Of a stretch of 64,000 nt of DNA, positions 6,513-47,931 are shown piece by piece (within the stretch, counting starts at the first letter, position 1; each line of letters opens with the position of its first letter). The notes under the pieces were generated by a model, which worked only from the letters and a program-made list of their open reading frames with translations, ran no database searches and was not told the origin of the DNA. Origin of the DNA: Eledone cirrhosa (lineage: Eukaryota); contig OZ024753.1 of assembly GCA_964016885.1 (NCBI GenBank), forward strand, positions 45,384,001-45,448,000, given 5' to 3'. The position numbers and the translations under genes were made by a program.

Positions 6513-6836
6513 ACACACATGGCTTGCAAGATACTTGAGGTGAAGTCGTGTGTTGAAATAAGTATTGTTATACTTATTTCCAATGTACTGCCAATAAAAG
6601 CACCTGCACCAGTTAATTTTCACTTCAATGTTAATATTAGTTCTATAACTAATGCCTTCTATGGTTAGTTTAGTAACATAATAGTTATTTAGTTGTCATA
6701 TTTAATTGACAAACTACTTTCGTCACACATTCTGTGACCTTTCCAATGACTTTCGTTACTCTGTCATTTCTCTTTGTTTTGATTTTTTTCTATTTATCAA
6801 TTTGCACAATGTTAGCTTTCTGTGGAGTGTATGGGG

Positions 6837-12850: not shown

Positions 12851-12965
<115 letters not shown>

Positions 12966-13418
12966 GTGTTTGTATAATTCAAAATCTAAACACAGGCGAC
13001 AAGGAGAGACACTATTACCTTCCCCTTCGCCCTTGTTTAACGAGAGAGGAAGATAGAGAGAGAGAAGTAGTTGGTGTTACAGAAATATTACCTTCCCCTC
13101 TCCACTTACTTTGGTCAGTGAGACCGAACGAAGCACTGTTGCTATAGAAACCACGTGCCACAAGAGACCAGTTCCTGGCGGTTTCGTTCTCTCAGCTGGC
13201 ACCACCTCTTGTAGTCAATATTATTTGGAAGTATATATAATATATCTTATATAATATAGCTATAATATATTATATTATATTATAATATAGTGTCTATATT
13301 ATTCATTATTTATAATATATATTGTATATATAATATATATTGTATATATAATATATATTGTAATATACAATATATATTTAAACAATATTTATAATATATA
13401 TTATATTATAAATATAAT

Positions 13419-13510
13419 GCTTCAGGCAGGACCGGCTGGAAGGCAAGTTTGACAAATTAGTCACCACGTGACCCTGCTAGGGATAAGTTGGCAAAGTAGA
13501 AGAAGAAGAA
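13419..13510 (+). mobile_element. Probable RTE-type LINE 3' end with (GAA)n tail (mirror copy at ~14108-14199, minus strand)
   Basis: ASGRTGWKASLTN* (cf. A.DR..WR C-terminus), then GTGACCCTGCTAGGGATAAG...AGAAGAAGAAGAA. Confidence 0.4.
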
Positions 13511-13704
13511 AAATATATATATTGTATATATTACATTGAAAAGAGAGACAGAGAGAGACAAAGACTTTTATATAGAGAGAGATAGCGTTAAACATCGGCA
13601 TAAAGAATCGCGGAAGATTTCCGATTCCGCGAATATGCGGTGATTTCCACGAACAATTATTATTTATGTTCTAAGGAAAATTCCACGAATAAACCGGGGT
13701 TACA

Positions 13705-13744
<40 letters not shown>

Positions 13745-13907
13745 TATATATATATATATATATATACATACACACACTGTATATATATATACACACTGTA
13801 TATATATATATATACAGTTTGTGTAGATATATATATAAATTATGGAAGTTGGCTTCTTGCTACAATAACTTCTATACTTTTCATTTATATATATATATAT
13901 ATATATA

Positions 13908-14012
13908 CAGTGTAACCCCGGTTTATTCGTGGAATTTTCCTTAGAACATAAATAATAATTGTTTGTGGAAATCACCGCATATTCGCGGAATCGGAAATAT
14001 CTTCCGCGATTC
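13908..14012 (+). mobile_element. pogo/Tigger-like (Tc1-mariner superfamily) MITE terminus (mirror copy at ~13605-13707)
   Basis: TA|CAGTGTAACCCCGGTTTATTCGTGG start with repeated TTCGYGG subterminal motifs; CAGT...CCCCG ends flanked by TA are typical of pogo/Tigger TIRs. Confidence 0.55.
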
Positions 14013-14644
14013 TTTATGCCGATGTTTAACGCTATCTCTCTCTATATAAAAGTCTTTGTCTCTCTCTGTCTCTCTTTTCAATGTAATATATACAATATAT
14101 ATATTTTTCTTCTTCTTCTACTTTGCCAACTTATCCCTAGCAGGGTCACGTGGTGACTAATTTGTCAAACTTGCCTTCCAGCCGGTCTTGCCTGAAGCAT
14201 TATATTTATAATATAATATATATTATAAATATTGTTTAAATATATATTGTATATTACAATATATATTATATATACAATATATATTATATATACAATATAT
14301 ATTATAAATAATGAATAATATAGACACTATATTATAATATAATATAATATATTATAGCTATATTATATAAGATATATTATATATACTTCCAAATAATATT
14401 GACTACAAGAGGTGGTGCCAGCTGAGAGAACGAAACCGCCAGGAACTGGTCTCTTGTGGCACGTGGTTTCTATAGCAACAGTGCTTCGTTCGGTCTCACT
14501 GACCAAAGTAAGTGGAGAGGGGAAGGTAATATTTCTGTAACACCAACTACTTCTCTCTCTCTGTCTTCCTCTCTCGTTAAACAAGGGCGAAGGGGAAGGT
14601 AATAGTGTCTCTCCTTGTCGCCTGTGTTTAGATTTTGAATTATA

Positions 14645-14764
<120 letters not shown>

Positions 14765-25695: not shown

Positions 25696-25699
25696 GACA

Positions 25700-25830
25700 G
25701 GCAATTCATTTTATCGACCCAAGAAAAATGAAATGTAAAATTGGCCTCGGTGGTATTGGAACTCAGAGAGCAGAACTAATACTACAAAGGATTCTATCAG
25801 ATGCCGTAACAACTCTGACAATTCACCCCG
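25700..25830 (-). mobile_element. Degenerate tRNA-SINE
   Basis: ATTTTATCGACCC..ATGAAATGTAAAATTGGCCTCGGTGGTATTGGAACTCAGA aligns by eye to the 27493-27662 copy. Confidence 0.6.
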
Positions 25831-27492: not shown

Positions 27493-27658
27493 ATAATTGT
27501 TTCTACTTTTGGCACAAGGCCAGCAATTACCCAGTACATTACTGGTACTTTATTTTATCGACCCCGTAAGGATGAAAGGCAAAGTCAACCTCGGCGGGAT
27601 TTGAACTCAGATCGTAAAGGGACGTAACTATGCTGCAAAGCATGGCGTCCGACCCTCT

Positions 27659-27662: not shown

Positions 27663-27730
<68 letters not shown>

Positions 27731-27763
27731 GGGAGTTGACGGACCCAGCATATTTATATATAT

Positions 27764-27893
27764 GGGAAAAGAGTCAGGACCCCAACGGCTGAGCTCCGGC
27801 CGTCTCGACAGCTAAATTCGACTCTACTACCCTATGTATTGAGTACTCTGGTGCATTATGGTCCACCTGGTATCTTACCACACCCTCTTCGTT
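27764..27893 (+). mobile_element. Hairpin/hammerhead-half element family, copy A (right arm deleted)
   Basis: Shares its left arm and the ACTCTACTAC...CTTCGTT tail with the copies at 37013, 39262 and 47707; flanked by TA repeats. Confidence 0.8.
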
Positions 27894-29919: not shown

Positions 29920-30887
29920 GATGCAGGAACAACTATCTGACGTCATCACCTGAGGCTCTGGTGATTCGTTGTCTGATAAATTGTTTTATTCTATTTCCGA
30001 GTAGTTCATTTTTTAGCTTCGCAATCATAGTCTCGGTTTTGTTTTTATCGCCTTCCATCCGGCGGTAAATGTCCTTCACCACAGACTTTGGTTAACCCAA
30101 CACCTTGGGGTAAATAATACCCGAATTACTTGATCGTTTTTTTTTGGCTATGCGAATGATTGTTTAACCATCGTCTCAGTGTGCTTGGCCTTTAACGTTT
30201 GTTATAGCTCTGGTTCTTCTGAATCATTGAACACTTGCCGCACATCTCGGAGGTTGCTTTTCGTTATTTCGTGGGCCGAAATGCGAATCTCGATAATTTA
30301 TGTTTGTATTATTCTCCAGACTCTAGCTATTGACCAGTTAATTTTCTTGATTTTTTAGTTGATTCTATTGACTGATGAATAGCTTATGTTAATTTTAACC
30401 CTTCTGTTGAGAACTCTATTCGATTTGTGATGTTTTTGCATTCTTGCAAGAATATAGACAACTGAATTAATTCGCCAGATATAAGGGTTGCCTCCCTTGC
30501 CGATCCCCACGTGGGGTCGGCAATAGTCAGTCCTTGTATTAACATTGAACTAAAACCTGTTGAGAAAGTGGCTTCCTTGTTCAATCATCTTACCAGAAGC
30601 CTGACATTATATATGTAAGCGGACGGTACTTGATTTAGGAGCCGCAGAAACCCAAATACTGGATTTTACCAACCTTCCAGGGGTCCGGGTAAATTCTCAA
30701 TACCCGAATTACTTGATCGTATTTTTGGCTATCCGAATGATTGTTTAACCATCGTCTCAGTGTGTTTGGCCTTTAACGTTTGTTATAGCTCTGGTTCTTC
30801 TGAATCATTGAGCACTTGCCGCACATCTCGGAGGTTGTTTTTCGTTATTTCGTGGGCCGAAATGCGAATCTCGATAATTTATGTTTG
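29920..30887 (-). mobile_element. Possible decayed LINE 5' UTR/ORF1 region with a ~190 bp direct repeat (30116-30307 and 30699-30887)
   Basis: The direct repeat is seen directly; the minus-strand peptide KSVVKDIYRRMEGDKNKTETMIAKL is only loosely ORF1-like. Confidence 0.4.
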
Positions 30888-30973
<86 letters not shown>

Positions 30974-33767: not shown

Positions 33768-33795
33768 TTATATCGTCTTTCTCCATTTCCTGAGA

Positions 33796-33897
33796 AATAA
33801 TTGTTTCTACTTTTGGCACAAGGCCAGCAATTACCCAGTACATTACTGGTACTTTATTTTATCGACCCCATAAGGATGAAAGGCAAAGTTAACCTCG
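33796..33897 (-). mobile_element. tRNA-SINE 3' half
   Basis: Nearly identical to 27493-27592. Confidence 0.85.
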
Positions 33898-37012: not shown

Positions 37013-37368
<356 letters not shown>

Positions 37369-37701: not shown

Positions 37702-37921
37702 TAGAATATTCGAAAATATTCTGTATGTTTATAATAAACATTTTGAAGACATAATCGCTATAGAATAGAATACGTCACGTATTACAATTAGATTCTCGAT
37801 AAAAGCAAGGGAAGTAACCTACGCGTTTCATTCTTATTAGAAATCTTCAGGATTACATATCCAGTTGCTTTTATCGAGAATGACACATATATATCGCTAT
37901 TTCAGAGCATTTAATCCAATT

Positions 37922-38121
37922 NNNNNNNNNNNNNNNNNNNNNNNNNNNNNNNNNNNNNNNNNNNNNNNNNNNNNNNNNNNNNNNNNNNNNNNNNNNNNNN
38001 NNNNNNNNNNNNNNNNNNNNNNNNNNNNNNNNNNNNNNNNNNNNNNNNNNNNNNNNNNNNNNNNNNNNNNNNNNNNNNNNNNNNNNNNNNNNNNNNNNNN
38101 NNNNNNNNNNNNNNNNNNNNN
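37922..38121. other. Assembly gap (200 N)
   Basis: Run of exactly 200 N. Confidence 1.
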
Positions 38122-39261: not shown

Positions 39262-39459
39262 AACGAAGGAAGTGTGGTAGGGAACCAGGTGGACTATAAC
39301 GCACCAGAGTATGCGTACTATGCAGACTGTGAGTTTTAGAGTGGGTAATAGGAAAAGAGTCAGGACCCAGACGGCTGAGCTCCGGCCGTTTCGACAGCTA
39401 GCTCTGAACTAGCTATCAAAACGACCGGAGCTCAGCCGTCGGGGTCCGAACTCTTTTCC
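39262..39459 (-). mobile_element. Hairpin/hammerhead-half element family, copy C (opposite orientation)
   Basis: AACGAAGGAAGTGTGGTAGGGAACCAGGTGGAC... is the reverse complement of the family tail; ~51 bp hairpin arms at 39351-39401 and 39409-39459. Confidence 0.85.
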
Positions 39460-39517
39460 TATATATATAATATATATGAGAGTATTGAAGTTTACTTGAA
39501 GCATTGTGGAATAATAA

Positions 39518-39948
39518 GGTAAATTTCTTTAAGTCGTTTGGAAGCCTCGACAATGCAAATGGGTAAATCTCCGGGTAACAAGATCCGGTGGTGGAGAGAG
39601 AGATGTAAGTGGGTGTACGTTCAGATGCGTGCGTGTATAAGACGTGTAGTGGTCACGTTTCGCACCTTTCCGACAGACAAACCTTTCCCCCACCCCGGAA
39701 AAAAAACCCCAGTTGATGGATGTGAATCCGAAATATATAGGGACAATTAAATCTCTCCCAAGGTAACTCTCTCTCGTGTTGTTATTTTTATTTTTATCCT
39801 TTACGATCTTTCCTTCTTTCCTCTACACGTCTTATACACGCCACGCATCTCAACGTACACCTACTTACATCTCTCTCTCCACGGATCTTGTTACCCGGAG
39901 ATTACCCATTTGCATTGTCGAGGCTTCCAAACGACTTAAAGAAATTTA

Positions 39949-39950
<2 letters not shown>
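39518..39950. repeat. Inverted repeat, ~130 bp arms (39518-39649 and 39823-39950), enclosing a degenerate hammerhead-like motif
   Basis: The arms reverse-complement with a few indels; the spacer contains CCC-CAGTTGA-T-GGAT-GTGA-ATCC-GAAATATATA-GGG-ACAATTAAA. Confidence 0.9.
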
Positions 39951-39991
<41 letters not shown>

Positions 39992-40286
39992 GAGTAACAT
40001 TTAGACTAGTAAGACAACATTCAACTAAGTACTCGATACTTGGGGAAGTAGCAGTTTGTGGCCAAGCCCCACGCGATTTCAACGGTGAGTGGACAACCTC
40101 TATATCCCTTTCTCACATATTTTTCTCTAATTTTCTATCTTTTTCTGAAGAAATATGCTGTAATTTAGCTTGGATAGAGATGGGCTCAACCAGGCTTAAA
40201 ATATCCAAGACGTAGGTTAATATGGCGCCCCTACGACTCCATCAGGAGTTACTGGACCATAACATAGCCATCACTAATTCAGCAAT

Positions 40287-45238: not shown

Positions 45239-45342
45239 ATAAAATATCTCTCTTCACACATACACACACAAGCACACCGTCATATATTTATATATATATT
45301 AGTTTTGCGAGGTTTTTTATATGAAATCGTGTGTCGAAACAA

Positions 45343-45579
45343 ATATTGTTATACTTGGGGAGGGTCATATTTGTGTAATAATATTGCCAGAATTAATAAC
45401 AGAACACACTCACTATTTGGTTGGTTTCGCTTGTGTCTTTTATATCGGTTAATTTAATAAATTAAATTAACCGATATAAAAGACACAGAAGCGAAAACCA
45501 ACCAAACAGTGAGTGTGTTCTGTTATTAATTCTGGCAATATTATTACACAAATATGACCCTCCCCAAGTATAACAATAT
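45343..45579. repeat. Near-perfect palindrome, ~116 bp arms, 2 nt spacer
   Basis: Centre GGTTAATTTAAT-AA-ATTAAATTAACC; the peptide CYTWGGSYLCNNIARINNRTHSLFGWF appears on both strands in the ORF track. Confidence 0.97.
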
Positions 45580-46686: not shown

Positions 46687-46915
46687 AAGGGCGGTGTATT
46701 GGCAGTATCGGTAAAGCATGGAGACCCTGCTTCGCGTCATAGTTACGGTATTTACGTTCTGAGTTCAAATCCCCGCAGAGGTTAGCTTTGCCTTTCATCC
46801 TTACGGGGTCGATAAAATAACTACCAGTAATGCGCTGTGATCGATTTGATCGACTTTCCCTCCCTTCCTCCCCAAACAAATTTCTGACCTTGTGCCTAAA
46901 TCAGAAACCATTATT
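46687..46915 (+). mobile_element. Full-length tRNA-derived SINE (octopus type)
   Basis: A-box-like TGGCAGTATCGG, B-box GAGTTCAAATC, central GCCTTTCATCCTTACGGGGTCGATAAAAT, tail AGAAACCATTATT. Confidence 0.85.
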
Positions 46916-46923
46916 ACATACAA

Positions 46924-47090
46924 GAGGGTCGGACGCCATGCTTTCCAGCATAGTTACGTGCCTTTACGATCTGAGTTCAAATCCCACCGAGGTTGACTTT
47001 GCCTTTCAATCCTTACGGGGTCGATAAAATAAAGTACCACTAATGCACTGGGTAATTGCTGGCCTTGTATCTAAAGCAGAAACCATTATT
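46924..47090 (+). mobile_element. tRNA-derived SINE, tandem with the preceding copy
   Basis: B-box and central domain as above; same subfamily as 27493-27662. Confidence 0.85.
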
Positions 47091-47653
47091 ACTTACAAGA
47101 ATTAACTTCAATACTTTGATACAATTATTTCTATACTTTAAAGCAAGTAACATTTCATCGAAATCTCTAATAATGATGTTTTATTGATGAGACCCAATTT
47201 TTCAGAAGAGACGAAAGAGATGGCTTGGTACTCCCACGTGTTTTAATTTGCATAGTGTATCAATTTGGATGGGATTTTTAAAAGGAATTTTTAAACTAGA
47301 ATATATATATATATATATGGAAGAATTGAACTACTAAAGCTATTAATATATAGCTTTTAGTTTGAGTTATCATTAATATTCAATAAATTATTCAACAAAA
47401 GGCACAAACAATAATATTTGAAGTTAAGTGATATTGAAGTAAAATTGACATGATATTTATGCAACATGAAAGAGGAAATGTGAACAACACAAATTTATGT
47501 TGAAGTCGTATATAAATACAACGGTGGACATAAACTGACACAAGATTGCCAAGCAAGTCGCATACATAAGCCCAGAGTAGCACGAACTGCACAGATACAC
47601 ACTAAAATGCAAACACATATACAGACATAGTACACCAGTGTTTGTAATAGACT

Positions 47654-47706
<53 letters not shown>

Positions 47707-47708
<2 letters not shown>

Positions 47709-47895
47709 AACCAGTAAGACCCCGACAGCTGAGCTCAAGCCGTTTCGACGGCTAATTCAGTCCAGAATTAGCCATCGAAACGGCTTGAGCTCAGCTGTCG
47801 GGGTCTTACTAGTTCCTATTACCCACTCTACTACATCAAGTATTGAGTACTTTGGTGCGTTATGGTTCACCTGGTTCCTTACCACATTTCCTTCG

Positions 47896-47897
<2 letters not shown>
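47707..47897 (+). mobile_element. Hairpin/hammerhead-half element family, copy D (most complete)
   Basis: 52 bp arms at 47707-47758 and 47765-47816 (2 mismatches), 6 nt loop, then an ~80 bp tail ending CTTCGTT; pure (TA)n on both sides. Confidence 0.9.

Positions 47898-47931
<34 letters not shown>

Follow-up and report, generated by a model that had tools for sequence, protein, structure and literature searches.

TA-flanked hairpin elements with a hammerhead-like half motif in Eledone cirrhosa are probably stubs of Penelope-type insertions

Four short elements in a 64,000-nucleotide stretch of the genome of Eledone cirrhosa (contig OZ024753.1 of assembly GCA_964016885.1, forward strand, positions 45,384,001 to 45,448,000; hereafter the window) are probably very short, 5'-truncated insertions of a Penelope-like terminal repeat (pseudo-LTR) or of a non-autonomous derivative of such a repeat. 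Each of them is likely to combine a forward piece with an inverted, tail-less piece, the two being placed head to head inside a TA microsatellite. Membership in the Penelope-like elements (PLEs) and the ribozyme identity of a hammerhead-like motif in the forward piece are both likely as judged from this anatomy; neither a parent element nor an intact ribozyme was found. The family stands apart by its long tail and long helix III and would otherwise be a known type of insertion. An earlier note, made from the letters of this DNA, had already linked these elements to Penelope pseudo-LTRs and to the 3' half of a hammerhead; that link is reasonable and also provides the best reading here, as an interpretation of the anatomy.

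The DNA of the window is of animal type, rich in AT and densely set with microsatellites (219 rows of tandem repeats; GC content of 10-48% per 2 kb), and it includes a 200-N gap at 37922-38121. None of 140 of its reading frames (of 170 complex frames of at least 55 amino acids) reached the Pfam cut-off, and none of the 140 matched a reverse transcriptase or GIY-YIG domain. A long inverted repeat at 12890-14750, with arms of about 0.9 kb that are 97-99% identical in their unique parts, a centre of about 200 nt and TG/CA runs at its bounds, could be either a fold-back unit of young age or an artefact of the assembly. A SINE-like dispersed repeat is present in five copies (27493-27658, 33793-33897, 46725-46837, 46923-47093 and 25697-25767), two of them in tandem, and no tRNA gene was called for this repeat or for the hairpin family.

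The four related copies of the hairpin family (A-D) recognized in the earlier note are borne out by alignment and by BLASTN within the window, where their shared 3' parts match with E-values of 1e-16 to 1e-51. No fifth full copy was recovered by BLASTN in the window, the only other hit being a weak 24-nt match at 40028-40051. As had been noted, all four lie between TA runs and end in CTTCGTT, with lengths of 130-198 nt, the test of TA flanking being weakened by the general TA-richness of the window (495 TA runs). Their layout, with that of copy D in detail, is as follows:

27764-27893, plus strand: copy A, an inverted arm (27765 to about 27819) joined directly to the tail (27821-27893)
37013-37170, plus strand: copy B, a 23-nt left arm and then a forward copy from the helix II 3' strand onwards
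39262-39459, minus strand: copy C, inverted arm 39459-39409 and forward copy 39408-39262
47656-47706, unstranded: TA repeat to the left of copy D, likely the target site
47707-47757, minus strand: inverted arm of copy D, a reverse copy of 47766-47816 that starts at the TA run and is tail-less
47758-47765, plus strand: loop of copy D, a forward-strand remnant at the inner joint
47766-47776, plus strand: putative helix II 3' strand of copy D, assigned from sequence
47777-47799, plus strand: GAAA, helix III and GUC triplet of copy D, a hammerhead-like 3' half (12 of 5,000 shuffles)
47800-47816, plus strand: putative helix I 3' strand of copy D, assigned from sequence
47817-47897, plus strand: tail of copy D, a one-sided extension of about 80 nt (81 nt) to CTTCGTT
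47898-47928, unstranded: TA repeat to the right of copy D

The hairpins described earlier for copies C and D are present, with arms identical at 49/51 positions in D and 45/51 in C; that of D comprises 51 bp and has a z-score of -16, a value reached in none of 200 shuffles. Copy C has its GAAA at 39392 and an 8-nt insertion in the tail. Copy A is without the forward arm, and its core is decayed (GAGA, GTT). In copy B the GAAA lies at 37049 and the GUC ends at 37071, and the left arm, which may be either an inverted copy or the native 5' strand of helix I, differs from the right arm by three mismatches in 23 nt, all transversions (P of at least three, 0.03-0.28). A short non-TA island at 27728-27750, to the left of copy A, ends in GGACCC and is perhaps a scrap of another arm.

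The arms had been said to match better within a copy than between copies. This is true of copy D, whose arm agrees with copy B at 46-47/51 positions against 49/51 with its own partner, and fails for copy C, whose right arm is closer to the left arm of A (47/52) than to the left arm of C itself (45/51). The pattern follows two subfamilies, A/C and B/D, and does not amount to the covariation that had been read into it: among six related arms, a small and non-independent sample, two-sided change was seen in 0 of the 6 pairs of helix III, and three pairs never vary. Given the variable inner joint and the head-to-head inverted build, the match between the arms of a copy is better understood as a by-product of copying.

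For the tails of B, C and D a stem-loop with a 4-bp TGGT/ACCA stem is predicted close to the 3' end; overall the tails fold no better than their shuffles (z of 0.2 to -0.7). No terminal inverted repeats were detected, the two ends of the copies agreeing at 3-6 of 15 positions, and with the variable inner joint this led to rejection of a MITE or fold-back DNA transposon, a possibility raised in the earlier note. A coding reading was likewise dropped, one frame being open in B and D and shifted in C; the open 51-codon frame of D has no protein relative, in what is a weak test. An Rfam scan by E-value returned, among the best 150 of 463 matches, only microRNA-type hairpins and TA repeats, and pattern scans with the arm and tail gave no match in viral contigs, metagenome contigs or prokaryote genomes.

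The case for a ribozyme origin rests on a half motif. Copies B, C and D contain the C-GAAA, helix III and GUC elements, with helix III closed by an A15.1-U16.1 pair and followed by a triplet of the NUH type, in line with the earlier description of the right arm of copy B; the counterpart in A is the decayed one. Helix III has 5-6 bp and a loop of 7-9 nt with a palindromic GAGCTC, and the cut site of the hammerhead-like half would lie 98 nt upstream of the 3' end of the element. A strict descriptor of the motif is matched in 11-17 of 5,000 dinucleotide shuffles per copy (0.2-0.3%) and the loosest one in 231-339 of 5,000 (5-7%), rates that are optimistic because the half motif was first chosen by eye. 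The core is more conserved between subfamilies A/C and B/D than the adjacent strands. A hammerhead origin of the half motif is therefore likely on the strength of its sequence features. To call it established, as had been done, is an overstatement: Rfam gave zero matches at the gathering score in the window and hence no hammerhead, and the E-value scan of copy B gave five weak matches, none of them to a hammerhead family.

Copies A-D themselves are not whole ribozymes. As had been reported, none retains CUGANGA, and of the CTGANGA matches in the window, 18 where 14 would be expected, none lies in or beside a copy; the full type I descriptor retrieved no whole hammerhead in the window. The strands that would pair in helices I and II of C and D are inverted copies, and native helix strands may be represented by the left arm of B and by a GGCTAT stretch upstream of loose ends in sequencing contigs (see below). 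On the minus strand at 37807-37856, beside the N gap, there is a decayed minimal hammerhead-like motif (CTGAAGA ... GAAACGCGTA) with a 6-bp helix I by eye, which failed the full type I descriptor at helix II. Sixty-five viral loci combining CTGANGA with the helix II strand were set aside as chance matches, as they bear no resemblance to the copies and in no case complete helix II.

It could be argued from these results that the hammerhead look is fortuitous and that the copies are not Penelope-related at all, being instead a repeat mobilised by LINEs, whose 5' inversions would be due to twin priming, or a fold-back or Helitron-type DNA element. Twin priming is the mechanism by which L1 elements yield 5' inversions. 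The missing Rfam hammerhead match, the lack of compensatory change in helix III, the missing parent ORF and the frequency of the loosest descriptor in shuffles would all fit such a view. We nevertheless regard it as very improbable, given the rarity of the strict motif in shuffles and its recurrence in the similarly built but unrelated unit at 39478-39954; moreover, the copies have neither terminal inverted repeats, nor a CTRR end, nor a tRNA gene, and the start of the inversion is fixed rather than scattered.

That the inverted arm is a copying product is best seen beyond the window. The sequence of copy D was found wholly or partly in nine sequencing runs, of which four (X10, X1, X5 and X9) supplied the joints and ends. 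Run X10, consisting of raw reduced-representation (RAD) reads and bearing the species label of the best-matching run, contains 21,285 reads fitting copy D among 12,467,656; 11,648 contigs fit in contig set X1, which may share its source with the window, and 35 and 9 contigs fit in the sets from two other organisms. As RAD sampling is biased, the read share speaks of abundance and not of copy number, and its conversion to about 6,000-21,000 copies for 1-2.5 Gb is a naive one. The family may already be catalogued in a repeat library.

The outer ends are fixed: read depth is high up to the CTTCGTT end, both ends abut (TA)n, and 731 reads and 49 contigs show the arms running into TA at 47819. There is variation at the inner joint: 13 of the best 15 of 43 joints jump from the left arm to positions within 47781-47871, and at least 11 different landing points are reached from 47758. 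In 8 of the best 12 of 30 rows the letters inserted at the joint are T, TG, TGG, TGGA or TGGACT, matching the copy D loop, read in reverse complement, from its beginning; the reversed loop turns up in this way at joints in other genomic copies. This implies that the left arm arose by inverted copying, which in some cases went on past helix II before the tail was joined, as in copy A. Identical sets of alleles occur at mirror positions of the two arms, as expected if both were copied from one template, an agreement partly inflated by 2,433 reads that fit both arms. In a single contig from X9, another organism, the inverted arm is present with a joint of another kind.

These joints bear on the proposal, made in the earlier note, that the catalytic core was repeatedly overwritten. 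In a developed form, a short hammerhead-bearing non-autonomous element would insert whole, its quasi-palindrome, composed of helices I and II flanking the core, would later be perfected by template switching during replication with loss of CUGANGA, and subsequent deletions would produce the A- and B-type copies. The near-perfect hairpins of C and D, the presence of other long palindromes in the window, the imperfect left arm of B if it is the native helix I strand, and one X1 contig with CTG between two helix I strands, which is a hint only, are in keeping with this. Joints at which the reversed loop leads on into the tail, with many landing points, are not what the perfecting of a short hairpin would be expected to give, however, and it is at the TA target, not at an internal boundary, that the inverted arms start; nor was an un-overwritten copy seen among the four in the window or the best 22 of 410 loose ends. 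Overwriting is thus unlikely, and truncated forward copies joined to inverted tail-less ones at a variable joint, as described for Penelope-like elements in the available parts of two reports (PMC8557442, PMC3846280), fit better.

The same loose ends were searched for the missing 5' half. CUGANGA was found in none of the best 22 of 410, a weak test at 30 letters each, and the search in reads has low power because the AATT within helix II is a site at which the RAD reads are cut, with 4,667 reads ending at 47766. As no CUGANGA emerged from those 22 ends, the hammerhead identity is unproven. A longer upstream stretch starting with GGCTAT is present in 29 X1 contigs and one X5 contig and may be the native 5' strand of helix II before a loop of about 34 nt, or else another inverted arm. 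In this stretch TTCAC stands about 25 nt before TTCAG, and TTCAG also precedes helix II in copies D and C; we liken the two, as an assumption, to a branch point and a 3' splice site.

Such signals suggest a further model, in which the template RNA natively has only the GAAA/helix III/GUC half and CUGANGA is supplied in trans or by splicing of an intron in loop II. Its positive support is limited to the absence of CUGANGA, from all copies, from those 22 best loose ends and from upstream of the half motif at 39478-39954, joined by the TTCAC/TTCAG signals in the X1 and X5 contigs and the TTCAG of C and D. Penelope elements are described as retaining introns, one of which abuts the hammerhead in D. 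virilis (PMC4209133, as far as its available text goes). The low power of the CUGANGA search counts against giving that absence much weight, and the unit at 39478-39954 has no 3'-splice-like site at the corresponding place. A literature search retrieved no relevant report of a natural split hammerhead in retroelements. Altogether a split ribozyme appears quite unlikely.

The unit just mentioned adjoins copy C and is unrelated in sequence to copies A-D. It too is TA-flanked and built of an inverted arm plus a tail:

39478-39954, minus strand: TA, inverted arm 39954-39820, 167 nt, forward arm 39652-39514, an extension of about 36 nt, TA

Its arms, of about 140 bp, are 93% alike, and C-GAAAC, a 5-bp helix and a GTC at 39661 occur on the minus strand where the inverted arm stops. 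Among the eight matches of the strict descriptor in the window it is the sole GC-rich one outside the hairpin family. The unit supports a shared insertion process. CTGANGA is absent from the 167 nt upstream of its half motif, which keeps the split ribozyme in play. Elsewhere, a palindrome at 45300-45579, between TA runs, has arms of about 118 bp (96%), a 43-nt one-sided extension and, at the boundary of the extension, a GAAAC motif with a 4-bp stem; it has a weak relative at 6541-6575.

The preferred reading, i.e. truncated Penelope-type insertion, draws on close precedents. According to the available portions of two reports, Penelope-like insertions often have an inverted 5'-truncated copy beside their 5' end and a one-sided tail of 30-40 bp, and the Hydra and Naiad families insert into (TA)n (10.1101/2021.04.23.441226, PMC8557442). 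In Adineta, palindromes mark the head-to-head junction of Penelope copies, for which self-priming was proposed, and the inverted pseudo-LTR is 37 bp shorter than the direct ones (PMC3846280, in part). The Poseidon protein of Anolis cuts and extends both strands of AT-rich DNA in vitro; its reverse transcription has two internal start sites on the RNA that bound the tail, of which the principal one lies 85-92 nt past the cut site of the hammerhead, and uncleaved RNA is the main template (PMC11167929, in the text available).

The copies resemble Penelope/Poseidon, Neptune and Hydra units in the head-to-head inverted tail-less copy, the palindrome at the inner joint (PMC3846280, PMC8557442), the AT-rich or (TA)n target and the hammerhead-like motif near the 3' end. 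Compared with what the accessible parts of these reports describe, they differ in being 130-198 nt long, in having a tail of about 73-80 rather than 30-40 nt, in that the joint lies inside the ribozyme motif and no copy has CUGANGA, and in being known as stubs without a parent ORF. With Poseidon of Anolis carolinensis (PMC11167929) they share two apparent starts downstream of the hammerhead and the retained uncut junction, and the distance from cut site to main start is 98 nt as against 85-92 nt; the two starts lie about twice as far apart here, and the mechanism was measured there whereas here it is read from anatomy. The C before GAAA, the GUC, and the palindromic loop III suited to dimer folding recall the type I hammerheads of metazoan PLEs, for which palindromic loops III are described and whose motifs are likewise scattered in truncated copies; unlike those hammerheads, with their short helix III, the present motif has a helix of 5-6 bp, nearer to the large helix III of fungal and protist PLEs, and is missing its 5' half (PMC4209133, as far as it is available).

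Non-LTR retrozymes, too, are short, non-coding and hammerhead-related. They are reported, in the available text of two sources, to be tandem units of about 300 bp with a whole ribozyme in each, and a derivation from PLE terminal repeats has been proposed for them (PMC7229834; 10.64898/2026.07.22.740005). The copies here are dispersed singles with an inversion and a half motif, and a retrozyme, the derivation suggested in the earlier note, was rejected because the four window copies form no tandem units and contain no whole ribozyme. Likewise, no partial tandem forming direct pseudo-LTRs was found for the family within the window. In run X10 a joint of the 3' end to the 5' end (window positions 47705-47899, 195 nt back) is represented by 31 reads from two starts, and an opposite-strand joint at 47716/47813 by 97 reads from two starts; a few loci may hence hold units in tandem or back to back. 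Separately, a 200-bp direct repeat at 30108-30307 and 30687-30888 (95%), which ends at a TA run and has a CTGATGA between its copies at 30372, resembles a partial tandem with pseudo-LTRs. The available part of an annotation of octopus repeats lists 190 Penelope-like families and makes no mention of ribozymes (PMC13282606).

A single insertion process could accommodate the inverted arms, the outer ends fixed at TA, the variable inner joint, the GUC junction left uncut and the absence of the 5' half. The endonuclease of the element would nick both strands of (TA)n; primed by the first nick, reverse transcription would begin at the place in the RNA that is read as CTTCGTT, and the second nick would prime at a TAT just after helix I, on uncleaved RNA. 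Both cDNAs would halt in or near helix II and be joined via short homology, an overlap between them giving hairpins as in C and D and a gap giving copies of the A type. Copy B might have arisen from an inverted arm with three changes joined at a CC microhomology, or by retention of the native helix I strand with deletion of the core. The loss of CUGANGA is most simply accounted for by 5' truncation: it would lie upstream of the point where copying stops, and the stubs would be catalytically dead from birth. Within the Penelope reading we lean mildly towards such double priming over a self-priming fold-back of one strand followed by deletion; a literature search found no report of twin priming in Penelope elements. 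Points against the Penelope reading as such are the failure to find a parent in the window frames, a helix III longer than that of metazoan PLE hammerheads, the unproven hammerhead identity, the tail of about 73-80 nt where 30-40 nt are described, the possibility that the left arm of B is a native strand beside an internal deletion, and the 167 nt without CUGANGA at 39478-39954; if those 167 nt are native, simple truncation leaves their lack of CUGANGA unaccounted for.

With thousands of short copies that have fixed outer ends and variable joints, this family offers material for testing whether the inverted copies of Penelope elements originate by double priming or by self-priming, a question left open by the available parts of the relevant reports (PMC3846280, PMC8557442, PMC11167929). 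The copies could also show whether helix II of the ribozyme itself guides the join and removes the catalytic core. Stubs of this kind are easily mislabelled as MITEs, SINEs or microRNA hairpins. If the split ribozyme were real after all, it would represent a ribozyme that is naturally split, or gated by splicing, and that leaves the transposition template uncut in its unspliced form, with a second, unrelated family next door (39478-39954) doing likewise, and this would bear on why PLEs retain introns and on why their ribozymes are dispensable for insertion in vitro.
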